DNA from: Candidatus Latescibacterota bacterium
GTDB taxonomy: Bacteria; Latescibacterota; UBA2968; UBA8231
NCBI GenBank assembly: GCA_965197905.1
Contig: CBDAOB010000004.1
Coordinates: 640,001-704,000 of the forward strand
Direction: 5' to 3'
DNA length: 64,000 bases
Positions 29,833 through 43,315 of the stretch are shown piece after piece. Every line of letters begins with the position of its first letter. Position 1 is the first letter of the stretch. A model generated the notes under the pieces. The model was given only the letters and a program-made list of their open reading frames with translations, searched no databases and had not been told where the DNA came from. The translations under genes were made by a program, and so were the position numbers.

Positions 29833-31302
29833 CTACCTATTCTGTACCAACTCGTCGTTGTGCCAGTACCCCGACTTAGACTTCCCACTTGCCCGGTAGA
29901 TGGTGCCAGGGCCCTCCTTATATCCGTCGAACCACTGACCGACGTAGCGGCTTCCATCGGGCCAGGTGTAGGTGCCCTGTCCGTGCATGGCCCCTTCCCA
30001 CCAGTCGCCGGCATAGCGGTCGCCGGAGGTCCAGGTGTAGACCCCGTATCCATGTTCGTGGCCGAAGCGGTACTCGCCCTCGAAGCGGTTGCCATTCTTC
30101 CACATGAAAACACCGCGGCCATGTCGCTTCCCCTCCCGCCATTTGCCTTCGTAGCGGTTCCCGTTCGTCCAGACGAAACTGCCCTCTCCGTGGACCTTGC
30201 CCTCGGCCCAATCGCCGGTGTAGTAGTCCCCGGCTGCCAGCGTGAACGTGCCTTCCCCGTGGCGCTGGTCGTTTTGAAAGGCGCCGACGTAGGTGTCGCC
30301 ATTGTGCCAGGTGTAGGTGCCCTGCCCATGCAGCTTGTCATCCCAAAAATCCCCCACGTATCGATTCCCGTTGGACCACACGAAGATCCCCTTGCCATCG
30401 CGTTTTCCCGAGCGATAGCTGCCCTCGTAGCGATCGCCTGCGACGGTAGTAAACACCCCCTTGCCGTTCGATTTGTCGTTGCGCCATTCGCCGTCGAACT
30501 GGTCGCCGTTGATCCAGGTAAAGTGACCTTTGCCGTAACGTTGGTTCTCGCGCCAGTTTCCAACGTATTGATCCCCATTGTGCCAGGTAAGCGTACCCTG
30601 TCCATGGCGGTTGTCGTCGCGCCAGTCGCCTCGATATTCGTCGCGGTTGGACCAGGTCAGGGTACCGCTACCGTATCGCCGCCCATTGCGCCACTCGCCG
30701 GCGTACGTCTCACCGTTGGTCCAGGTAAAAATGCCCTGACCATGGGGTTGGTCGCTGCTCCAAGTGCCCTCGTAGGTGTCGCCGTTGTTCCACCAGTAAC
30801 TTCCCTGACCGTGGCGCAGGTCGGCATACCACTCCCCCCCATAGCTCTCACCCTGCGAGTTCTTAAATGTGCCCTCGCCGTGACGCTGTCCCAACCGCCA
30901 TGACCCGGAATACTCCGAACCGCTGACGTATCTGCGTTGTCCGTTGCCATGGGGCAACAAGCCGGTCTCGGCGGGGGGTCGCAGGCGGATCTCGCCGATG
31001 TAAGTTCCCTGCTCTGCCCAGACGACGCGGAATTCTCCCACCGCTTCCCCCTCTTCGAAGCGGCCGCTTGCTTCTTCCCCTTCTGGCAGCCAGCGATACG
31101 TCCCGGTCCCGTGGGGCAAACCGCGGACGAACTGGCCCTCGTACTCCTGCCGATTAAAGTAGAGCAACTTCCCAGCTCCGTGAGGCTGGCCGTCCTGGGT
31201 CTCGCCGCGATATTTCCCTTCCGGAAGGGTGAGGTGTTCTTCAGCTTCCAGAGGCGCACCTAGAATTAGCCCCAGCAGTGGAGCCCATTTCCACGTTGAC
31301 AT
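29833..31302 (-). CDS. Secreted MORN-repeat protein
   Basis: Signal peptide from ATG 31302, followed by a long tandem run of 23-aa YxGxWxxxxxHGxGxxxWxNG units. Confidence 0.92.
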   Translation of the reverse strand: MSTWKWAPLLGLILGAPLEAEEHLTLPEGKYRGETQDGQPHGAGKLLYFNRQEYEGQFVRGLPHGTGTYRWLPEGEEASGRFEEGEAVGEFRVVWAEQGTYIGEIRLRPPAETGLLPHGNGQRRYVSGSEYSGSWRLGQRHGEGTFKNSQGESYGGEWYADLRHGQGSYWWNNGDTYEGTWSSDQPHGQGIFTWTNGETYAGEWRNGRRYGSGTLTWSNRDEYRGDWRDDNRHGQGTLTWHNGDQYVGNWRENQRYGKGHFTWINGDQFDGEWRNDKSNGKGVFTTVAGDRYEGSYRSGKRDGKGIFVWSNGNRYVGDFWDDKLHGQGTYTWHNGDTYVGAFQNDQRHGEGTFTLAAGDYYTGDWAEGKVHGEGSFVWTNGNRYEGKWREGKRHGRGVFMWKNGNRFEGEYRFGHEHGYGVYTWTSGDRYAGDWWEGAMHGQGTYTWPDGSRYVGQWFDGYKEGPGTIYRASGKSKSGYWHNDELVQNR

Positions 31303-31403
31303 CGCTCGGTTCCCCGGTATATCTTTCCGCCCGAAAGGGTCTATATTCGGTAAATAACAGGATTGCAGAAAGCTGTCCACACTGAATCAGACAGATCGAT
31401 ACC

Positions 31404-33217: not shown

Positions 33218-34447
33218 ATGATTCTCTCCGGAGAAAACGCCAATCACACAGACAACAGACCTCAGGGCATAGTGATATCTAGAGAGGATCCGGATCAGCA
33301 CCAGATTGTTCTCAGCGGCAAGGGGTTTCGGTTTGTCCGCGGTTTTCTCGGACTGATCGTGCTTCTCGCGGTCGTACTCGTCATCTCCACTCTCGTCATG
33401 AGTTGGAAGTTCGGTATGAACGTCACTGTTGAAGGAAAAGGTGTGGTAGAACCGGTTGACCGCCTTTGGGTCAAGGCACCCCTCAACGGACTCGTTGAGC
33501 GGATCCTCGCCAGGCAGGGTCAGCTTGTTGCAGAGAACGATACCGTGGTCGTGTTGGATACCACGGAACAGCTCGCCGAGATCCGGAAGTTGCAGAATGA
33601 CTTGGAGATCAACCGGAGCCGCAGACTGGAGCTAAAGCTGGAAATCGATCAGGAGGGCAGGGTAGGTGCTGCCAATCTACGAGGCGCGCATACGGACCTG
33701 GCGCGGGCACGGATGGAACTAGCACATGTACTCGCCGAGCAAAGATTGAGCTCGAATGGCGCAGCGATGTTCGCCAGAAAACCGATGGAAGAGCTTATCC
33801 CGGTTCAGAAGAGCCAGGCTCGGCTCGATAAGGCGTTGGCTGACTTGGACCTAGCGAAGAAACGGGGTTTCGTCGATCGCCGAAATCAGGAACTCGAAAC
33901 TCTTTTCAAACTGGGCGAAAAGCTGCGTCACGAGCTCGAAACCATCGCTCGAAGGATCGAGCGGAGCACGGTAACCGCAGGAATTGCCGGAGTGGTGCTC
34001 ACCGGTGATTTGTACCGACGGGTAGGCGACCGCGTGGTGGCTGGAGAGACCATTCTGGAGATCGCCAAGCTCAACCACTGGCAGGCCGAACTTGGAATTG
34101 CCGAACACGACATTCCACGGGTTAAGCCCGGCCAACGAACGCTTCTATACGTAAACGCCTTTCCTCACCTGGAGTTCAAGATATTCGAAGGGACCGTCAG
34201 CCACGTTCCCTCGGCCCCTGGTCCGGCCGTCGCCGGAGTGTCAGAAGGGTATCCGGTGAAAATTGGCGTAAAGAACCCACACGTTACCGATGGAATTGCG
34301 AAATACCGATTAGTTCCGGGAATGCGGGTGGAAGGATCCATCGTCGTGGAGCGCGCCCGGATTCTGGGAATCTTGTGGAAGCGGCTCCTGAAAGCGAGCG
34401 GGAAGCTGGAGAAGAAGAATGAACTTCAACTGCTGGACCCAGTATGA
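33218..34447 (+). CDS. HlyD-family periplasmic adaptor / secretion protein
   Basis: Single N-terminal TM, GKGVVEP, VKAPLNG lipoyl half-motifs, long coiled coil, DIPRVKPGQ, LVPGM. Confidence 0.9.
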   Translation: MILSGENANHTDNRPQGIVISREDPDQHQIVLSGKGFRFVRGFLGLIVLLAVVLVISTLVMSWKFGMNVTVEGKGVVEPVDRLWVKAPLNGLVERILARQGQLVAENDTVVVLDTTEQLAEIRKLQNDLEINRSRRLELKLEIDQEGRVGAANLRGAHTDLARARMELAHVLAEQRLSSNGAAMFARKPMEELIPVQKSQARLDKALADLDLAKKRGFVDRRNQELETLFKLGEKLRHELETIARRIERSTVTAGIAGVVLTGDLYRRVGDRVVAGETILEIAKLNHWQAELGIAEHDIPRVKPGQRTLLYVNAFPHLEFKIFEGTVSHVPSAPGPAVAGVSEGYPVKIGVKNPHVTDGIAKYRLVPGMRVEGSIVVERARILGILWKRLLKASGKLEKKNELQLLDPV

Positions 34448-36159
34448 GCAACTTGCTTCGCATGGTGTCGTTGTTGAAGCCATACTGGCGCTACCTTGGT
34501 CAGTCACTTGTCGTCGGAATATTGATCATGATGCTGCAGCTGCCGGGACCGTACATGACCAAAATCCTCGTAGACGATGTCTATCCGCAAGGTGACGAAT
34601 CACTCCTCTGGTGTATCCTGATCCTGGGATCCGTCATGACGATGGGGCTCGGACTCACCAATCTTTTGAGCGGATACTTCGGACAGTTCGTAGGCGTTCA
34701 CATGGGACTCGATTTTCAATCACGGTTCTATCGACACATTCAGTCCCTCGATTTCGGATTCTTCGACCAGCGGGAGACCGGAGCTATCATCTCCAGATTC
34801 GACGACATGTACCAGTCGATCACAAGTGTTATTCAGATAGTCAACTCGTTCGTCATGAACCTGCTGCAGTGCCTCATTTTTCCCCCGATCCTCCTGTTGA
34901 TCAATTGGAAGTTGGCGCTGGTAAGCATTGCCGTCCTGCCTCTCGACACCATTCTCGTGGTAACCACGAGAAAATACTTCAAGAGTCTGTCGGAACGCTT
35001 GGCTCAACGGTCCGCTGAATTGAATGCGCGCCAGTATGAATCGCTCAATGGTATCCGAGCAGTACAAGCGTTGGGGTTGGAATCGAGCTTCTATGTGAAA
35101 ATGGTCCATCTATTGAGCGCGGTGACAGACCTGCAACTTCGATCGGCTCTCTTGCAGGGAGGCACGAACTTCGTTGCAACGAGCATAAGAGCAGGCGGCA
35201 CATTCGCATACGGAATCTACGGATGGACCCAGGTTCTGGAGGGCCATCTTTCGCTCGGTTCGTATCTCGCATTCTCCGGCTATGTAGGATTCTTGTACGG
35301 ACCCATCGGGAATCTCGTAGGGCTTCTCGGACGCGTCGAGGTAACCCTCGTCCACGTAAATCGGTTTCTCGAGTTGTACGACCTGCGCCCATCCATATAC
35401 GACGAGCCCAACCAGAAACGGCTGGGAAGAGTGCGTGGACAGATTTGCTTTGAGGGCGTGAGCTTCTCCTACGATGGCAGGACGATGATCTTGCAGGAGA
35501 TTGGGCTCACCGTGCCCTCCGGATCGACACTCGCCCTCGTTGGTAGAAGCGGAACGGGCAAGTCGACCCTGGCCAAACTGGTCCCACGATTCTACGATCC
35601 AACGTCCGGCACTGTTACCGTCGACGGCGAGGACGTTCGCAACGTCCGTCTGAAATATCTGAGGGAAAACGTCACCTACTCGCTGCAGGGTAACAACATT
35701 TTCCATGGAACGGTGTTGGAGAATCTGACCTTTGGGCGTCCACTGTCGGAAGCCACCGTAAAAGAGGCAGCCCGCAAAGCACACATCCACGATACCATTG
35801 CTGCGCTGCGCGATGGATACGAGAGCCACGTGGGTGAACAGGGTGTGCAGCTATCCGAGGGAGAGCGGCAGCGCCTGGTGTTGGCGAGAATCCTGTTGCT
35901 CGATTCGCCCATCGTTATCCTCGATGAACCGACCTCGGCGCTCGATATGGAATCCGAATACCTCGTTCACGAGGCGCTCGGCAATCTCAAGAGAGATCGC
36001 ACCCTGATCGTTATCGCCCACAAGATTTCGACGATTCGAAGTGCGGACGAGATCGCTGTTTTGGACGGAGGAAGAATCGTAGAGAGGGGGGATCACAGCC
36101 AGCTGGTGAAGGCAGATGGATTGTATTCTCGGATGAACCAACTATCGGCAACGTTGTAG
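34444..36159 (+). CDS. ABC exporter (TMD+NBD), no C39 peptidase domain
   Basis: TM domain begins at the N-terminus. Walker A GRSGTGKS, signature LSEGERQR, Walker B IVILDE, H-loop IAH. ATGA overlap with the HlyD gene. Confidence 0.93.
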   Translation: MSNLLRMVSLLKPYWRYLGQSLVVGILIMMLQLPGPYMTKILVDDVYPQGDESLLWCILILGSVMTMGLGLTNLLSGYFGQFVGVHMGLDFQSRFYRHIQSLDFGFFDQRETGAIISRFDDMYQSITSVIQIVNSFVMNLLQCLIFPPILLLINWKLALVSIAVLPLDTILVVTTRKYFKSLSERLAQRSAELNARQYESLNGIRAVQALGLESSFYVKMVHLLSAVTDLQLRSALLQGGTNFVATSIRAGGTFAYGIYGWTQVLEGHLSLGSYLAFSGYVGFLYGPIGNLVGLLGRVEVTLVHVNRFLELYDLRPSIYDEPNQKRLGRVRGQICFEGVSFSYDGRTMILQEIGLTVPSGSTLALVGRSGTGKSTLAKLVPRFYDPTSGTVTVDGEDVRNVRLKYLRENVTYSLQGNNIFHGTVLENLTFGRPLSEATVKEAARKAHIHDTIAALRDGYESHVGEQGVQLSEGERQRLVLARILLLDSPIVILDEPTSALDMESEYLVHEALGNLKRDRTLIVIAHKISTIRSADEIAVLDGGRIVERGDHSQLVKADGLYSRMNQLSATL

Positions 36160-36204
36160 AAAGACCTCGGGGAGCTGATCGACACCACATCAAAGGAGAG
36201 AGCA

Positions 36205-36564
36205 ATGAGAACGTTGATTAAACGAAGGCCGAAGTCTTATAGTGGAATGGACTGCAAGGTTAGTGCCTATGGATCTGAGGATGGAGGATTCTTGGGCTCG
36301 ATGAGAGCTCTGGCTGACAGCGTCTTCAGCGGTGGGACTGTGGCTACGGACACCTTCAGCGTAGGTGCCGTTAGCGCACACTACACGGTCACTTCTCCAA
36401 TCAAGATCACGCCCACGAGTGCTACCTTTTCGGGACCTCTTCCCGTAAGTGTCGGAGTAAGCATAGCTCCGTCCACGACAAGCCAAGGTCCAACTCCAGG
36501 ACCAGATAGCTCGATAAACGGGGTAGGGACCTATAGTGCAGTCGCCGACGAAACCCGGCGTTAA
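36205..36564 (+). CDS. Putative precursor peptide / secreted substrate (basic leader ending VSAY, Ser/Thr/Gly/Pro-rich core)
   Basis: Strong RBS AAAGGAG 5' of the ATG. It is the only small non-enzyme ORF between the exporter and the proteases. Leader MRTLIKRRPKSYSGMDCKVSAY. Confidence 0.65.
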   Translation: MRTLIKRRPKSYSGMDCKVSAYGSEDGGFLGSMRALADSVFSGGTVATDTFSVGAVSAHYTVTSPIKITPTSATFSGPLPVSVGVSIAPSTTSQGPTPGPDSSINGVGTYSAVADETRR

Positions 36565-36702
36565 TCGAAGTAAATCTTGGCTTATTGAAGACTGATTGAA
36601 CGGTGTCGAAGCTCCTCGAGGTCGGTCTTAGGTTGTCGACAGTGACGTAAAGTGGGCGCGGCTAGACTTCTGAGAACACTCAACTGCAGCGAGAGACCGA
36701 GA

Positions 36703-37452
36703 ATGGCGAGAAGTGTGAGTTGGCCGAAAGATGTGGACATATCCTTCCTTCGTGGAATGGTACTGCTGGTGGTCTTGTTCTTCGTGCCGCACCTAGTTCT
36801 TGACGCCTCGTTCAGAATGGGATTTCCAAACAACGTGGCAACCGTCAAGCACAGTATCGAGATGGCCCTCATCTATACTGTAGTCCTCGCAGTTGTTCTA
36901 GTTACGCTGAAGCTAGTTGGCCAGATCTCCATCGTGCCCTTCTTGCAGGTGAAGACTCTACTGCCTTCGGAGTTACTCGTTTGCGTATCCTTTGCAGCCT
37001 TGTTCGGCTTCTTTCAATTTTATGCTAGCGTTCCGTACGGAAGGCTGCTTCCAGATGTAGACTACATTCTTTTCTTTTTGGCGGGGCTCCTGGTACACTC
37101 TGTGCTATGGCCTCTGATTGAAGAGGTTATTTTTCGAGGTGTCGCGTTCGTCGCGCTGTTCAACTATAGCAAGAGCCGCCTCACGGCGTACTTGGGATCG
37201 ACCTTCCTGTTTACGATCTTCCACGCGCCTTCTCTTCCGAATCTCTTCCTTCACGCAACTACGGGTCTATCGAACGCACACCTGATCCTCATCGTCTCCT
37301 TCTCGTTTTTTGCAGCCTTTATATATGAACGGACGGGGAAACTCATGCTGTGCGTGCTGGCCCACGGTGTCGTCAACGGCATGGAGTTCCTTGGTGTCAT
37401 TGTTGGTTACATAGTCGATTTTCCGCTTCCAGAGGACGGACCGGGCAACTAA
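36703..37452 (+). CDS. CPBP (Abi/CAAX type II) intramembrane glutamic protease
   Basis: EEVIFRG, FTIFH and AHGVVN motifs; polytopic. Start uncertain (GTG 36652 or ATG 36703). Confidence 0.88.
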   Translation: MARSVSWPKDVDISFLRGMVLLVVLFFVPHLVLDASFRMGFPNNVATVKHSIEMALIYTVVLAVVLVTLKLVGQISIVPFLQVKTLLPSELLVCVSFAALFGFFQFYASVPYGRLLPDVDYILFFLAGLLVHSVLWPLIEEVIFRGVAFVALFNYSKSRLTAYLGSTFLFTIFHAPSLPNLFLHATTGLSNAHLILIVSFSFFAAFIYERTGKLMLCVLAHGVVNGMEFLGVIVGYIVDFPLPEDGPGN

Positions 37453-37453
37453 G

Positions 37454-39397
37454 ATGTCGAACGCTTTTGCTGGTCTCACTGGCGCCGGCACCAGAGTCGC
37501 GGTAGTCGATAGCGGGGTCGACTTCTCCCATCCGAAAATCGATGGCGCTCCATCGGGAGTCGGACTCCGATACGACGGGGGAAGGGTCGTCGAATCCGGC
37601 AACTTCGACGACGTTGTGGGTCACGGCACCGCGTGCGCCGGAATCGTAAGGAAAAGAGCTCCCGAAACAGACCTGATATCAGTCCGAATATTCGACACTT
37701 CACTGCAAACCCACGGACACAACCTGGTTGCCGCGATACGGTGGTGTCTCGAACACCACATCGATGTCGTGAATCTAAGCCTTGGAACGACCGACCTAGA
37801 TTTCCGGGATGTCCTTTTCGATGCCTGTCAAGAGGCGTTGGACGGCAAGGTACTGATCGTCGCAGCTCACAACAATGAAGAACAGGAGAGTTTCCCAGCC
37901 GTGTTTTCGAATGTCATCGGCGTCACTGCAGGTCGATTTTCCGATTCCAAAGCATACCGCTATCGACCGTTGAACCGCGTTGAATGTGTAGCTCATGGTG
38001 ACCTGCAGCGGGTCTGCTGGTTGAACTCGCGGGAGCTGCTCGTACGGGGGACGAGCTATGCAGCCGCCCATGTTTCGGGGATCGTCGCTCTGCTTCGCCA
38101 GGCCCATCCCCACTGTGACCTGAGTCGGATTCGTGAAGTTCTGATGAGACACGCGGCTCGGAAAGACAGCACCGTTTCAGAACGGGAAGACACGTTACCC
38201 CTGCTCGACGCCAGAAGAATCGGAAAGCGGATCCATCCTGTTCGTGTAGAGCTTCAGCCCATAAAGGCTGCGCTTTACCCGTACAACAAGGAGATGCACG
38301 CTTTCGTGCGTTATCCCGAGCTGATCGATTTCGAGGTTACAGGAGTCGCCGATCCTGCCGGCAAGGGCCTCGTGGGAAAGGATGCGGGTGAGGCGATCGG
38401 TGTCGGCGCGACGGGTGTACGCATCGCATCGCGACTCATCGACGCTCTGACGGACGCAGACACCTTGATTCTGGGATATGTCGACGAGCTGGGACGCATC
38501 TCAGGACGCGACTTCCTGCGTGAATCAGTTCAGACCGCGCTAGACAACGGCCTGAACGTATTCAGCTTCGTCCCGCTCCCGTTTGAGGGTTATGAGGACC
38601 TGCACCATTCGGCGCGAATGAAAAACCTGAAAATCACCTATCCCTGGGTTGCCCCAGACGCGTTACAAACCGCCATCGAGGATCCCAACAGATATGATCG
38701 GGTCCAGATCCCTGTGCTGGCAGTATGCGGCACCGGTCCCCAACAGGGCAAATTTACAGTGCAATTGGCGCTGCGCAGATCCCTATTGAGTATGGGATTC
38801 CGGGTGGGTCAACTGGGAACCGAACATCACAGCGAGCTCTTCGGTTTTGATGCGGCGTTTCCCATGGGTTATGCCTCTCCCCTGGCGATGCCGGTACAAC
38901 TTTTTGTGCCCTTTCTCGATTTCACAATGCGGGAGATCGCGCACGTCGGTAAACCTGATATCCTCATTGCCGGCTCGCAATCCGGCACGATACCGTATGA
39001 TATCGGTCTTCCGGACACACATACCCTGGCATCCATCGCTTTTCTTTTCGGTGTCAAACCGGATGGCTGCGTGCTTGTTGTGAACTCCATCGACTCTTAC
39101 GCCTATATACGCGACACCATAGCCGCCATTAAGGCCTTGGCCAAGGTCCCAACCGTGCTGCTGGCCATGAGCGACAAGGAGAAGAATGTTCAGAGCGCGT
39201 ACGGTCGCACGTGGATAAAACCCCGACAGTTGAGTAGGACAGAGATTTCGGATCGCCTGCGAAATTTGGAGGATAGCTTCTCGCTACCTGCTTTTGAGAT
39301 ATCGGATGGACACAGCCAACGCAGCATGACAGATGCGATAGTAAAGTACTTCACAGAAAGCGGTCCTGAGGATCCATGTCTGACAGCAGCGGCCTAA
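37454..39397 (+). CDS. S8 subtilisin-like protease fused to DUF1611/TIGR04066-like domain
   Basis: Catalytic triad VVDSG, HGTACAG, GTSYAA; no signal or pro-peptide. The C-terminal half has YPYNKE, GTGPQQGKFTVQL P-loop-like motif, GQLGTE, GSQSG and PDGCVLVVN. Confidence 0.85.
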   Translation: MSNAFAGLTGAGTRVAVVDSGVDFSHPKIDGAPSGVGLRYDGGRVVESGNFDDVVGHGTACAGIVRKRAPETDLISVRIFDTSLQTHGHNLVAAIRWCLEHHIDVVNLSLGTTDLDFRDVLFDACQEALDGKVLIVAAHNNEEQESFPAVFSNVIGVTAGRFSDSKAYRYRPLNRVECVAHGDLQRVCWLNSRELLVRGTSYAAAHVSGIVALLRQAHPHCDLSRIREVLMRHAARKDSTVSEREDTLPLLDARRIGKRIHPVRVELQPIKAALYPYNKEMHAFVRYPELIDFEVTGVADPAGKGLVGKDAGEAIGVGATGVRIASRLIDALTDADTLILGYVDELGRISGRDFLRESVQTALDNGLNVFSFVPLPFEGYEDLHHSARMKNLKITYPWVAPDALQTAIEDPNRYDRVQIPVLAVCGTGPQQGKFTVQLALRRSLLSMGFRVGQLGTEHHSELFGFDAAFPMGYASPLAMPVQLFVPFLDFTMREIAHVGKPDILIAGSQSGTIPYDIGLPDTHTLASIAFLFGVKPDGCVLVVNSIDSYAYIRDTIAAIKALAKVPTVLLAMSDKEKNVQSAYGRTWIKPRQLSRTEISDRLRNLEDSFSLPAFEISDGHSQRSMTDAIVKYFTESGPEDPCLTAAA

Positions 39398-39690
39398 CAC
39401 TTCGAGTAAAGACGACCATTGTAGTAGCTCTAAAACTCGAAATCGAGCCGGATCAGATAGCGGACGACGAGATCCTTTTTGAAGCGGGATTGGGGGTGGA
39501 CTCCGTCGCCATGATGGAACTCATCGTCGCCCTTGAAAACGAATTCGAGGTAGAATTCAGTGATGAGCTGATACGTATCGAGAACTTCGAATCCGTAGAT
39601 TCGATCGTTAAGTTGCTTGTTCCACTTTTGGAAGATTCCAGGATGGAGAAGGAGCCATGTTCCGCTCAAACCCAAAACGAGAATTTCTAA
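39376..39690 (+). CDS. Stand-alone acyl carrier protein
   Basis: Acidic small protein with LGVDSVAMMELIVALENEF phosphopantetheinylation motif. Confidence 0.92.
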   Translation: MSDSSGLTLRVKTTIVVALKLEIEPDQIADDEILFEAGLGVDSVAMMELIVALENEFEVEFSDELIRIENFESVDSIVKLLVPLLEDSRMEKEPCSAQTQNENF

Positions 39691-42380
39691 ATATTGAGTT
39701 GATGACAGACCCGGCGGCCAGAGATTGCCTCGAAGACATCCTGGCGTCTGTGATTTCCTGGTGGGGGCGTCGGTACGAACTGATGTTTGCGTCATCCTGG
39801 AGTTTCGATTTCAAACCGGGCCCAGGCGAGTTGGTGGGCCCCCGCCTTGATGCGGAGATATCCCCTGCCCTGGATCTGTTGGAGACTCACCATGGTATAA
39901 GAGTATCATTTGGAACGAGGCCGGTCGGGACCGACCTGTTTGCACTCGTTTTGAAGGAGATCCGCGGCGGACGTCCTGTCCTTCTCAGCCGAAGCCACCG
40001 CTCCGTGGCTGATCCTGGCTCAATCCCGCAGTTCGTCCTAGTCCTTGGATTTGACTATCTCCGCCAGGTCCTGTTCTATCGAGCCGCGGATGTGCGGGGC
40101 GCAACTACCCGGCAGGAAGGTTCCGTGCATGCCTTGCCACACAAAGAGCTGGGAGATTGGTCCGGTCCACACGCCACCTTTTCTGTCGGTGGCAACGGTG
40201 CAGCCACCTTGGATTGGCGACAGATTCTGCGGGATGCTGCTTTGCGGTTTCACGATCGCGATGGATCCGAGCACCGCTTCGTGATGATGGCGTCGTTTGC
40301 TCGGGAGATCGGCAGCATGGACATCAAAGCCGAGATACATGGGCATCAGAATCGGTATTGGGTGCCGCTTTTCTATAACCTCCGTCGAATTTCCCAGGGC
40401 CGTATTCAATTTGCATCGCTACTAAGGTTTCTCGAAGCACGATTCGATCTGCGGGAGATATCGGAAATATTGAGCGACTTCCAGAATGCGGGTCGCTCAT
40501 GGCAACTGGTTCGCAGTCTGATGATTAAATACTCACTGACTGTCGACGATCGTGCCTTGCTGAATCGAATCTCCACGCGAATTCTCGATATTGCAACAAC
40601 CGAGCAACAGCTAGCCGAAAAACTCATCCTGCTTGTCGACCGCGATAGATCCCGCGTAAGGAGCGATACGGCAAAACCGCCCGCACGTGATGAGCAGGAG
40701 ATGCGCACTGTTTCATCCATTCCCCGCCAGGAGGAAGGTTATGTCGCACCTCGATCGGCAATCGAGATATGCCTCGTGAGGATTTGGGAGCACGTGCTGG
40801 GGATGGAGAAAGTGGGTATTCTGGATAACTTTTTTGAGCTTGGGGGCGACTCACTGCTCGGCTTGAAGATCCTTGCCCAAATGCACAGAGCTGGATTGGA
40901 GATTGACGCTGGACAGATATACCAGCGTCAAACCATCAAGGAATTGGCAGCCGTGACCGGGATGAATACCTGCAGTGATACCGCTCAAGACCCCGAGACC
41001 GGTTCGATGCCCTTTCTTCCTCTACAGTACAAAGGCATTTCGGAGGATGGTCCCAACTACGGACTTGAAGGCGCTGTCAAATTCTACGCTCCGACGGTTC
41101 ACCATCTGACATCCGATCAGCTTGATCAGGTTGCCAATCGGCTGATGGCTCATCACGACGCTCTTCGGCTTCGATTCCCCCGTAATTTCGAGGACCGGCG
41201 CCCGACATTCTGTGAAACCTCGAGCGACTCTAGATGTTGGCAGTGGATCGACCTATCCGACGACCATCATTTGGACAGATCGGACATCCTGGACAGCGCT
41301 CCGGAGAAGGCGCGTTCTGTCATCGATCTGCACACCGGTCCTCTATTCGTGCTGCTGTATTTAAAAACGCCGTCGCACATGAAAAATGTTCTATGCATGT
41401 GCATCCATCACGTCGTTTCCGACGCCATCTCCAATGGAATTCTGGAAGAAGACATTCTGTCCCTTGCAGGTCAGGCAGCGGGGCACAGGAAGTTTCGTTT
41501 ACCTCGCAAGACGACCTCGATTAAGCAATGGTCCCACATGTTGTCCAACTACGCGCGATCTCCCGATACAAGAGAGGTCGACTATTGGAAGTGCAGACCA
41601 TGGGGCAAGATTCGCCCGATCCTGCCGGATCGCTGCGATGAGTCGTCAGTCGATCTTGGGAAGCTAATCACGGCCGATTTGACCGTGGGCGAGCGGATGA
41701 CCCGATCGCTTTTCAGCACCTGCCGGACGCTGAGCATTACCATTCACGAACTCTTGATAACCGGCCTGGCCAGAACCCTCGCCGGCTGGAGCGGATCGGA
41801 TGTGGTTCTCATAGAGCACATACATCACGGCAGAGATCCCGTTTTCGAAGGCACGGATTTGTCGCGAACCGTCGGTTTCTTTTCGCTCGAGGTTCCCGTG
41901 GTCCTGGAGTTGCCCGCGGCCAGCGGTCCCGAGGCCTTGCTCCAGGCAGTTTCCTCACAGATCCGCAACCTGCCGGCAAAAGGCATTGGCTACAGCCTGC
42001 TTCGTTACCTTTCGAAAGAGGAAGATATCGTCCGGTTCCTTGAGTCTATTCCTACCTATCAGGCGCGGTACAACGCCGTGATCGAACCCCATCTGGGCGA
42101 TCAAACGGCGGCTTGCGAAACCGATGGAAGCTGGGACGTCGAGTACTACGAAACTTCGATCTCGCCAGCCCGAATCGGTGCGACGTCATTCACCCTGGAA
42201 AACAAGCCGAGAATGGAGAAGAGGTGTCTCGTTCTGCCTCTCAGATTCGGACAAAAAGGACTCTTCTACAAGGAGACCGTGGCAAGAGTGGTCGACTCCT
42301 ACACGGACTGTCTGGAAAGATTCGCGGGACTTGGCCATGGTTTTCAATCCATGAAACCACGACTCAGAGAATGTGCGTGA
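39657..42380 (+). CDS. BtrH-like domain + PCP + condensation/epimerization-like domain (NRPS-like, no adenylation domain)
   Basis: N-terminus DCLE...YELMFASSWSF...GRPVLL...VLVLGFD resembles BtrH-N. PCP: YVAPRS..E..L..IW..VLG...DNFFELGGDSL. C/E motifs: HHDALRL, HHVVSDAIS, HGRD, LSRTVGFFS, PAKGIGY. RBS AAGGAG. Confidence 0.8.
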   Translation: MFRSNPKREFLNIELMTDPAARDCLEDILASVISWWGRRYELMFASSWSFDFKPGPGELVGPRLDAEISPALDLLETHHGIRVSFGTRPVGTDLFALVLKEIRGGRPVLLSRSHRSVADPGSIPQFVLVLGFDYLRQVLFYRAADVRGATTRQEGSVHALPHKELGDWSGPHATFSVGGNGAATLDWRQILRDAALRFHDRDGSEHRFVMMASFAREIGSMDIKAEIHGHQNRYWVPLFYNLRRISQGRIQFASLLRFLEARFDLREISEILSDFQNAGRSWQLVRSLMIKYSLTVDDRALLNRISTRILDIATTEQQLAEKLILLVDRDRSRVRSDTAKPPARDEQEMRTVSSIPRQEEGYVAPRSAIEICLVRIWEHVLGMEKVGILDNFFELGGDSLLGLKILAQMHRAGLEIDAGQIYQRQTIKELAAVTGMNTCSDTAQDPETGSMPFLPLQYKGISEDGPNYGLEGAVKFYAPTVHHLTSDQLDQVANRLMAHHDALRLRFPRNFEDRRPTFCETSSDSRCWQWIDLSDDHHLDRSDILDSAPEKARSVIDLHTGPLFVLLYLKTPSHMKNVLCMCIHHVVSDAISNGILEEDILSLAGQAAGHRKFRLPRKTTSIKQWSHMLSNYARSPDTREVDYWKCRPWGKIRPILPDRCDESSVDLGKLITADLTVGERMTRSLFSTCRTLSITIHELLITGLARTLAGWSGSDVVLIEHIHHGRDPVFEGTDLSRTVGFFSLEVPVVLELPAASGPEALLQAVSSQIRNLPAKGIGYSLLRYLSKEEDIVRFLESIPTYQARYNAVIEPHLGDQTAACETDGSWDVEYYETSISPARIGATSFTLENKPRMEKRCLVLPLRFGQKGLFYKETVARVVDSYTDCLERFAGLGHGFQSMKPRLRECA

Positions 42381-42392
42381 TCTTGCCGCCGC

Positions 42393-43247
42393 TCAGTCGA
42401 GGTTGGGGAGCGTCGGATTTATGGGTCTCACAGCCCTGTGATCAACCCGTACCGGGTCGGCCATCGCCTTGAACTCCTTGCAGAATGCCACCAGGTGTCC
42501 TGCGGCGGCATCCAGCATGGCCTTGCCTTTCTCGGCGGTAGCCAGGGTTGGCGCGCCGGATACCCCGTTCGGGGTACTGCTGCTGGTCCACTTGATCATT
42601 TTGATCGGACCCCAGCCTTTGGCCAGGTCCACATAGAGGTACTTGGACCCGTCTTCACCAGCAGCCCCACCGTAGTGATCCTCCGCTTTATCCATCTGCA
42701 CACGCTCCGGCGCAATGTGCAAGTATACCGAGGTCTCGAGTTCGCAAGCGTGCGCTGCGCCGCCCATCCCCGAATCGCGAACGGCTTCGAACTCCTCGGC
42801 AACCAGGTTGGTCCACATGGTGGAAGCGACCATCGCCTCGGTCTCCAGGGTGGCGCGGCGGGCGATGAACTCACACAGATGTTCGTTCGAGCCGTGGCCG
42901 TCGACGATCATGATCCGCCTGAAGCCGGCGTAAGCGACGCTCTTGCAGACATCGAGGCAGTATTCGATGAAATGCTCGTAGGTGACGTGTACGGTGCCGG
43001 GAAAGTCCTGGCCATGCTCGTTGTAGCCGTACGGAATATTCGGCATGACGAGAAGGTTCCTTGGGTCGCGGCGTGCAGCTTCGAGCGAAACCTCGGTCGC
43101 CAGCAGGTTGTCGGTGTCTAGAGGCAGATGATGGCCGTGTTGTTCGGTGCTGCCTATGGGCAGCAGGATCACCTTCTCGGCCTCAGTGGCTTCATTGATC
43201 TCGGGCCAGGTGAGATGTTCGTAGTGGATTTTGTTTAGTGCGCTCAT
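42393..43247 (-). CDS. Creatininase family amidohydrolase
   Basis: LPIGSTEQHGHHLPLDTD, FPGT, DGHGSN, HACELETS, NGVSG. Confidence 0.9.
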   Translation of the reverse strand: MSALNKIHYEHLTWPEINEATEAEKVILLPIGSTEQHGHHLPLDTDNLLATEVSLEAARRDPRNLLVMPNIPYGYNEHGQDFPGTVHVTYEHFIEYCLDVCKSVAYAGFRRIMIVDGHGSNEHLCEFIARRATLETEAMVASTMWTNLVAEEFEAVRDSGMGGAAHACELETSVYLHIAPERVQMDKAEDHYGGAAGEDGSKYLYVDLAKGWGPIKMIKWTSSSTPNGVSGAPTLATAEKGKAMLDAAAGHLVAFCKEFKAMADPVRVDHRAVRPINPTLPNLD

Positions 43248-43315
43248 AGTGAGACAACACCGTCGTCCAAGAATGTCGCAGTGATGTATTTCAAACAATC
43301 GGGGAAATCAGCAGG

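Follow-up and report, generated by a model that had tools for sequence, protein, structure and literature searches.

A low-GC seven-gene cluster of Candidatus Latescibacterota: a TIGR04066-type peptide cassette variant with an S8-DUF1611 fusion enzyme and a leader family defined here

The window analysed here is a stretch of 64,000 nucleotides from a Candidatus Latescibacterota bacterium (assembly GCA_965197905.1, contig CBDAOB010000004.1, positions 640,001 to 704,000 of the forward strand). It contains a cluster of seven co-oriented genes, several of them overlapping or nearly touching, that had been singled out in an initial annotation; all seven were recovered at the same positions, on the + strand, with three overlaps (4, 22, and 34 nt) and one 1-nt gap. 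They encode a HlyD-family adaptor, an ABC exporter, a small open reading frame (ORF), a CPBP protease, a fusion of an S8 peptidase with a DUF1611 domain, a free acyl carrier protein (ACP), and a protein joining a BtrH-like domain to a peptidyl carrier protein (PCP) domain and a condensation/epimerization (C/E) domain. All Pfam domain matches in the cluster exceeded their cut-offs. The cluster represents a variant form of TIGR04066-type peptide cassette, its leader family being defined here, and it is plausible that the DUF1611 fusion represents a new class of acyltransferase. The features, in window coordinates and with the basis of each assignment (HMM, hidden Markov model), are as follows.

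33218..34447, + strand: HlyD-family periplasmic adaptor, 409 aa (HlyD_3)
34444..36159, + strand: ABC exporter, permease plus ATPase, 571 aa (ABC_membrane and ABC_tran)
36205..36564, + strand: small ORF, 119 aa, candidate precursor (leader family)
36205..36270, + strand: leader of the small ORF, residues 1-22 (leader HMM)
36271..36564, + strand: likely core of the small ORF, 97 aa (no known family)
36652..37452, + strand: CPBP (Rce1/Abi-type) intramembrane protease, 266 aa (Rce1-like)
37454..39397, + strand: S8-DUF1611 fusion gene (Pfam Peptidase_S8, DUF1611, and DUF1611_N)
37454..38176, + strand: S8 domain, subtilisin-type (Peptidase_S8)
38264..39397, + strand: DUF1611/TIGR04066-like domain, predicted transferase (TIGR04066, structure model)
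39376..39690, + strand: free ACP (PP-binding)
39657..42380, + strand: BtrH-like-PCP-C/E protein, whole gene (Pfam PP-binding and Condensation)
39657..40661, + strand: BtrH/CtaG/CcbD-fold domain (ESM Atlas features, structure model)
40773..40952, + strand: PCP domain, Ser399 (PP-binding)
41103..42380, + strand: Condensation-family domain, epimerase type (Condensation)

The small ORF is preceded by a purine-rich site. Its 22-residue leader has a basic start, a Leu-x-Lys motif, and a V-x-A-Y end; the core of 97 aa is 30% Ser and Thr, contains no Cys and a single Lys, and has an isoelectric point of 4.6. Pfam and profile scans assigned the small ORF to no known protein family, and the ESM Atlas gave no usable match; four close homologues (71-98% identity) were found. 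Relative to the same-genus genome G002, the ratio of non-synonymous to synonymous substitution rates (dN/dS) ranged from 0.10 to 0.26 across the seven genes, so that purifying selection acts on all of them; the lowest value, 0.10, belonged to the small ORF, in which 23 synonymous differences stand against 8 non-synonymous ones.

ORFs lying beside homologous S8-DUF1611 genes begin with an N-terminus like that of the small ORF and continue into unrelated cores. This leader was followed through 79 related loci (66 from Ca. Latescibacterota, 10 of Gemmatimonadota type, 1 from Cytophagia, and 2 without a group name), for which the scan patterns were derived from close relatives and which are not independent of one another. 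An iterated leader HMM recognized 47 leader ORFs in 36 of the 79 loci, every one on the strand of the S8 gene, and made one match in the window's own genome; the count of 47 is partly circular, because the HMM was trained on these loci. When the HMM was rebuilt without the two window-type leaders, the window ORF ranked first among 127,954 genome frames (15.7 bits, against 9.7 for the runner-up frame). In 20 later loci (6,044 frames), a loose leader pattern composed before those loci were seen made 19 matches, compared with 32 in the 127,954 genome frames. A strict pattern, composed afterwards, made 18 matches in 13 of the 20 loci, one of which repeats a training sequence, compared with 3 in the whole genome. 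HMM and pattern combined marked 48 of the 79 loci, one of them falsely (on the opposite strand), and 41 of the 56 full-length loci. Among 80 metagenome loci, many of them short, the strict pattern marked 8, all on the enzyme strand, and a version relaxed after inspection marked 16. Across 54 leaders, Val or Ile occupied position -3 in 51 and Ala position -1 in 50, and the Tyr was present in 47. The leader is likely the site of recognition and cleavage.

The cores that follow these leaders are mutually unrelated, with lengths between about 25 and 140 aa; they include short Cys-rich peptides, hydrophobic Gly/Ala-rich helices, and acidic proteins of 100-140 aa. Because the cores vary in this way, the part held in common is the leader and the N-terminus alone, and a common N-terminus on unrelated cores fits chemistry at the cut end. 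On sequence grounds the cluster has the arrangement typical of peptides that are made on the ribosome and modified after translation (RiPPs), a conserved leader with a variable core beside enzymes, and the 119-aa ORF is likely a ribosomal precursor, as had first been proposed.

Several loci vary on this theme. At L080:2-1513, L084:281-1599, and L098:2-1551, three to four precursors lie in tandem; their leaders are almost the same, and their hydrophobic cores diverge. At L020:13015-14599 and L022:6491-8320, arrays of small proteins with a CxxC pair and a membrane helix adjoin the precursor and possibly confer immunity; the single small CxxC protein scanned had no Pfam match. A subtype (L113-L119, L123, and L124) has leaders ending in Gly-Tyr, Cys-rich cores, and genes for thioredoxin, MauE, rhodanese, and a beta-propeller protein; some of its members carry genes for radical S-adenosylmethionine (SAM) proteins, sulfotransferase, or UDP-sugar dehydrogenase.

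The S8 domain (95.6 bits to Peptidase_S8) retains its triad, Asp19, His57, and Ser201, which was invariant among 58 aligned homologues. The domain has neither a signal peptide nor a hydrophobic N-terminus, and its nearest S8 model is that of QhpE (NF049966; 146 bits, below the cut-off of 165). The P4-P1 preference of subtilisins is established, and V-x-A-Y fits it. In the other half of the fusion, the DUF1611 domain matched TIGR04066 over the full profile (E 5e-38) at 131 bits, below the cut-off of 200. Its structure model (mean predicted local distance difference test score, pLDDT, 86) is a Rossmann domain with a P-loop, for which VIA returned Z scores of 28.9 to 2g0t, 28.6 to 2obn, and 23.9 to DgcN (7xrj; root-mean-square deviation 4.2 over 305 aligned residues). 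Foldseek gave the same three entries at the top, and the next-best fold after them was dethiobiotin synthetase, at Z 15.1. In sequence searches of the PDB, the domain alone made weak matches, and an alignment query reached 2g0t at 1e-6. As modelled, the DUF1611 half has the fold of the N-acetyltransferase DgcN, N-acetyltransferase being the sole named enzyme of the DUF1611 fold (title of 7xrj).

The P-loop, Gly-Thr-Glu, and Gly-x-Gln-Ser-Gly motifs of the DUF1611 domain are nearly invariant. For the metagenome loci the pattern used in the scan itself selects an intact P-loop, and the P-loop state there was left out of the evidence. Of 102 domains compared, 80 had intact motifs and an ACP, 10 had intact motifs and no detected ACP, 10 deviated and lay near an ACP-like gene, and 2 deviated without one. 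The Gln-Gly-Lys of the P-loop was lost in four domains (L111, L112, L125, and L126), none with a Ser-bearing ACP nearby: two are clostridial and have Ser-less ACP-like genes, and two have no ACP. An eroded P-loop thus goes with loss of the Ser-bearing ACP, a suggestive association. At L125:8287-11307 and L126 the leader ORF was retained beside the eroded S8-DUF1611 motifs and no ACP was detected within the loci; in L125 a glycosyltransferase gene follows the fusion.

The free ACP matched PP-binding at 41 bits, with the attachment site Ser43 present, and TIGR04069 at 18 bits, below its threshold of 70. This Ser was found in 69 of 69 aligned copies from the related loci and 55 of 55 from the metagenome loci. 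The PCP domain of the last gene scored 42 bits to PP-binding, and its Ser399 is conserved in all seven fusions of this type. Within the 79 loci, S8 and DUF1611 formed one ORF in 74, an ACP was present in 67 (52 of the 56 full-length loci), a BtrH-like gene in 48 (42 of 56), a long ABC gene in 55, and a close HlyD gene in 27. The module therefore recurs elsewhere with a small ORF and an exporter, a co-occurrence whose absence had been set beforehand as grounds for abandoning the proposal, and the invariant kit is precursor, S8-DUF1611 fusion, and Ser-bearing ACP. The remaining neighbours, among them genes for thioredoxin, MauE, rhodanese, TPR, GNAT-like, and glycosyltransferase proteins, differ from locus to locus.

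The N-terminal 335 aa of the last gene's product are BtrH-like. No Pfam match was obtained for this region, and a PDB sequence search with it returned 0 hits; ESM Atlas features assigned it to BtrH_N/DUF4872 at 0.95, with 10 of 10 named hits in agreement, and the structure model (pLDDT 80) gave TM scores of 0.55-0.66 to AziU3, CtaG, and CcbD. The modelled fold is a papain-like domain with a helical bundle, as in the BtrH/CtaG/CcbD transferases. Cys24 is invariant in 7 of 7 fusions and aligns with the Cys of Cys-His copies (CtaG C11 and CcbD C19 are named in the titles of their structure entries), but in the sequence alignment the catalytic His column is Gln, Arg, or Pro in all seven (Gln125 in the window). 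Stand-alone BtrH-like copies have Cys and His or His alone, and the commonest type lacks the Cys. The C-terminal domain scored 117 bits to Condensation and weakly to TIGR01720 (28, below 74). Its HHxxxD motif is intact, and Ile722 stands at the place of the second catalytic Glu of the epimerase consensus; Ile or Met fills this column in 7 of 7. Five database proteins of 498-1,588 aa share the BtrH-like N-terminal domain, and the PCP-C fusion occurs in 2 of the 79 loci. We interpret the BtrH-like-PCP-C/E protein as an addition specific to its lineage, which may act as a second carrier or as a non-catalytic partner. A family of 210-aa proteins with no Pfam match occurs at L074:8030-8659 and in 13 other loci but is absent from the window; where examined, it sits between the ACP and a Cys-His-type BtrH-like gene.

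The exporter has its ABC_membrane domain at residues 23-287 and its ABC_tran domain at 350-498, a dN/dS of 0.11, and no C39 or other peptidase family domain in Pfam. The HlyD protein (HlyD_3, 47.3 bits over a cut-off of 22.2; TIGR01843, 86 bits below 208) has a single N-terminal membrane anchor, with a hydrophobic stretch at residue 43. Both exporter components score below type I secretion cut-offs, and genes of TolC type (17 matches) are found elsewhere in the genome only. The CPBP protease is Rce1-like (54 bits over 22.4); CPBP families were present in 23 and 4 of 97 loci, and we take the protein to be an accessory, possibly for self-protection.

From these parts the following sequence of events can be proposed. 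The S8 domain would cut the conserved leader at V-x-A-Y, to leave a core of 9,523 Da if cleavage falls after Tyr22 or of 9,686 Da if before it. The DUF1611 domain would then move an acyl group, supplied from outside the cluster, from the ACP Ser to the N-terminus that the cut exposes. Export of the capped product of 97 aa would fall to the HlyD/ABC pair, working with a TolC-type channel whose gene lies elsewhere. The product may serve in antagonism or signalling, a guess prompted by the CPBP gene and the variability of the cores. The cores share the leader and the cut end alone, and what stays constant in the system is a peptidase, joined in one chain to a domain of acyltransferase fold, and a Ser-bearing carrier, which makes cutting, capping, and export the most economical reading. 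Acyl transfer had at first been given to the BtrH-like-PCP-C/E protein; the DUF1611 half is the likelier transferase, because the former is a rare addition without the dyad His and the latter has the DgcN fold. That the small ORF is a precursor that is cleaved and exported we consider very probable; for the whole chain, capping included, our confidence falls a little short of an even chance.

A number of observations weigh against the capping scheme and the leader assignment on which it builds. The DUF1611 domain is 15-17% identical to DgcN, and the DgcN model NF041892 had no match in the window protein and gave 16.7 and 23.2 for two homologues, against a threshold of 480. ATP-dependent enzymes are similar in fold as well (Z 13-15), and the P-loop Lys is invariant. 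By Pfam, the cluster has no adenylation domain, ligase, synthase, or phosphopantetheinyl transferase (PPTase), and no acyl-loading gene was found among the 48 families scanned of 60 recurring neighbour families. The genome as a whole has 3 carrier domains, two of them in the cluster, and 1 PPTase; its 12 AMP-binding matches all lie away from the cluster. Ten loci with intact DUF1611 motifs have no detected ACP, 5 of them spanning 13-17 kb and 5 under 11 kb, and the association of eroded P-loops with ACP loss is to be read as suggestive because two lineages underlie it. The genome-wide E-value of the window ORF in the hold-out search was just 0.08, and 31 of the 79 loci (flanks of up to 8 kb) had no leader ORF by HMM or pattern. 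Cleavage, acylation, and the acyl donor are all predictions.

The alternative that survives best borrows the logic of butirosin and lincosamide assembly: the DUF1611 P-loop would load the ACP, as a ligase or transacylase, the peptide would receive its acyl or aminoacyl group from the BtrH-fold protein, and in the window cluster PCP and C/E domains would add a second step. BtrH is an ACP:aminoglycoside acyltransferase (PMC10318531), the BtrH-like domain has the fold of CtaG and of CcbD, whose structure was determined together with a PCP, and BtrH-like genes occur in 42 of the 56 full-length loci, some copies retaining both Cys and His. The missing loader would also be explained, and the invariant P-loop Lys and the likeness to dethiobiotin synthetase (Z 15.1) count in its favour. 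Set against this, the His is missing from the window copy and from all 7 fusions, the Cys is missing from the stand-alone type seen most often, 31 of the 79 loci show no BtrH-like gene, and Gly-x-Gln stands at the column that holds an acidic Mg ligand in related ATPases. We regard this alternative as unlikely.

Acylation may also be dispensed with altogether, so that S8 removes the leader, an unmodified bacteriocin-like or signalling protein is exported, and DUF1611 and ACP serve as a leader-binding scaffold or regulator. Clostridial relatives do keep the pair though the ACP-like Ser is absent (2 of 2) and the P-loop eroded; SacP23, from such a cluster, was heterologously expressed and active, judging by the title of PMC10731318; no acyl-loading gene recurs; and CPBP, TPR, thioredoxin, and MauE neighbours would suit plain secreted toxins. 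Against this account stand the Ser kept in 124 of 124 aligned ACP copies of the two Ser-type sets, the nearly invariant DUF1611 motifs, the holo-ACP synthase of the flm cluster, and the second Ser-bearing carrier of the window cluster, and we judge it improbable. That the carriers and the BtrH-C/E protein instead make a small acyl-amino-acid product, in a chance union of two modules, is very improbable: BtrH, CtaG, CcbD, and AziU3 act on small molecules (by their titles) and the locus is a low-GC island of mixed parts, but the ACP gene overlaps that of the fusion and accompanies fusions and leader ORFs across phyla, and substrate-activating or tailoring genes are absent.

Returning to the cut-cap-export reading, the nearest described systems are those of CLI_3235/CcpM (TIGR04065, 04066, 04068, and 04069; SacP23 cluster), which likewise have a TIGR04066-like protein, an adjoining ACP-like gene, S8, and an ABC exporter; the C. 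pasteurianum precursor in L111 likewise has an Ala-Tyr leader end. In the window, by comparison, S8 and DUF1611 are fused, the P-loop is intact, HlyD is present, the core is long and Cys-free, and the ACP carries Ser43, which is missing from the ACP-related protein of both clostridial copies. The cut-offs of TIGR04065, TIGR04066, and TIGR04069 were not reached. At E<=1, TIGR04065 matched neither the window ORF nor any of 19 further leader ORFs, and it had no match in the genome, although no control genome reached the cut-off either. The leader HMM scored the clostridial precursor at just 1.6 bits and so did not link the leader to CLI_3235. By precursor model, Cys-rich core, radical SAM gene, and TIGR04069, the window cluster is no member of the CLI_3235/CcpM group; it is a clearly related system. 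The authors of the SacP23 report suggest that the TIGR04066 protein may confer immunity and that the ACP takes part in a modification whose nature they do not specify (PMC10731318).

The flm/ohk systems for DD(I/V)LF RiPPs are a further relative. In Table S2 of that study a 638-aa S8 protein (FlmH) stands together with an ACP-like gene, a holo-ACP synthase, a gene with a condensation domain, and an ABC exporter; the text covered here examines the arginases alone and describes where cleavage falls and what is produced as yet to be determined (PMC12703449). From its length and synteny we infer that FlmH is the same S8-DUF1611 fusion. Locus L121, which is FlmA/FlmE-like, carries S8-DUF1611, ACP, and a V-x-A-Y leader, whereas the window cluster has no radical SAM gene, arginase, or DD(I/V)LF tail. 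FlmA-like peptides, FlmE-like radical SAM genes, S8-DUF1611, and ACP were seen at L121:6635-10685, L122, and L127, with peptide arginase-like genes in L122 and L127; the FlmA-like peptide scored 28.3 to NF052472 (threshold 30). These three loci come from the window's class, and the published list of flm-family precursors names Bacteroidetes only.

Among single enzymes, the DUF1611 structures (7xrj, 2g0t, and 2obn) share the two-domain fold of the window protein in a fold-level comparison (Z 24-29); the window protein differs from them in sequence (15-20% identity), in its motifs, and in being fused to a protease. The window's last protein shares fold and N-terminal Cys with BtrH/CtaG/CcbD and differs in the missing His and the fusion to PCP and C/E domains. 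DgcN itself uses acetyl-CoA and D-glutamate. QhpE is a signal-less subtilisin like the window S8, which lacks qhp genes around it and has the extra DUF1611 domain; QhpE works in the cytoplasm, where it takes off a leader of 28 residues ahead of export by an ABC transporter (PMC7876137). Leader removal followed by N-terminal acylation, as proposed here, is described for goadvionins, lipolanthines, and lipoavitides, where GNATs carry out the acylation and GdvG takes ACP-bound acyl groups (PMC13647313, 10.1101/2023.10.25.564083). Those clusters combine GNATs with fatty-acid or polyketide genes, and the window cluster has neither. The literature searched, which mostly excluded subscription papers, contained no description of S8-DUF1611 chemistry and no paper joining BtrH, RiPP, and ACP.

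The module is broader than first thought. No radical SAM maturase was found among the seven cluster genes and three neighbours scanned, so the description of the window cluster as free of radical SAM chemistry held; for the module at large it did not, a radical SAM motif accompanying it in 20 of the 80 metagenome loci, which are distant relatives, and one radical SAM family occurring in 5 of 97 loci. The view that the system is a diderm variant gave way to its presence with DUF692 on Bacillus plasmids. At L110:5856-12761 one such plasmid carries an ABC gene, a Ser-bearing ACP, two 44-aa precursors, S8-DUF1611, DUF692, a partner protein, and a His-only BtrH-like gene; an S8-DUF1611 fusion stands beside DUF692 on 6 plasmids. 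The leader HMM gave the Bacillus precursors just 3-4 bits. Within the phylum, 74 of 151 genomes carry the DUF1611 domain, with as many as 7 matches in one genome, and 829 of 8,000 scored candidate protein clusters matched a fusion profile at 1e-30.

We suggest, tentatively and with doubt slightly outweighing belief, that the S8-DUF1611 fusions are a new class of one-protein "cut-and-cap" RiPP enzymes, leader peptidase and DgcN-fold, ACP-dependent N-acyltransferase in one chain, behind a large unrecognised family of products. If so, such enzymes would need only a 20-residue V-x-A-Y leader and could cap any cargo of 10-140 residues; about half of the sampled genomes of the phylum would hold members of a large family of acylated peptides and small proteins, which would extend to other phyla with radical SAM, DUF692, or arginase partners; and the Ser-less CcpM cassette would be a decayed form of the S8-DUF1611 module. 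With 74 of 151 genomes and 829 profile matches, an uncultured lineage may have here one of its main routes to natural products. In the papers found, the TIGR04066-like proteins and ACPs of peptide clusters have no assigned function. The cluster reduces the system to its minimum, a precursor, one fusion enzyme, and one ACP. It also yields a predicted motif for cleavage, and dozens of precursors without annotation have already come to light through the leader pattern. Were the cap real, ribosomal lipopeptides could be reached by a route that does not use GNATs, and small proteins could be acylated at the N-terminus with a portable tool.

As to genomic setting, the low GC content first judged by eye was borne out by count: 0.543 for the cluster against 0.593 and 0.601 for its 10-kb flanks, a value as low being found in 23 of 727 genome windows of the same size. 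The same-genus genome G001 (89% complete) had no S8-DUF1611 match, and in it the left flank and remnants of a right-flank gene lie about 0.9 kb apart; given this empty site and the missing match, the cluster is a variable island. The tree built in the analysis has long branches that join, and no conclusion on origin or on the sequence of events was drawn from it. Searches for promoters, terminators, and repeats gave no excess over shuffled sequence, and no boundary repeats were found. Flags of an internal TGA on homologues, considered as possible selenocysteine, proved to be the own stop codons of those genes. Contigs from public runs span 30 of 30 bins of the stretch in 3 of the 4 runs examined; at window position 36884, inside the CPBP gene, a single contig from run X3 carries one inserted base, a strain variant or an error. 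A creatininase-family gene (window 42393-43298, - strand) borders the cluster, and at the G001 empty site only fragments of it occur (L134:2955-3293). On the other side, window positions 29833-31380 (- strand) encode a 515-aa protein with Gly/Tyr-rich repeats that by eye resemble MORN repeats.

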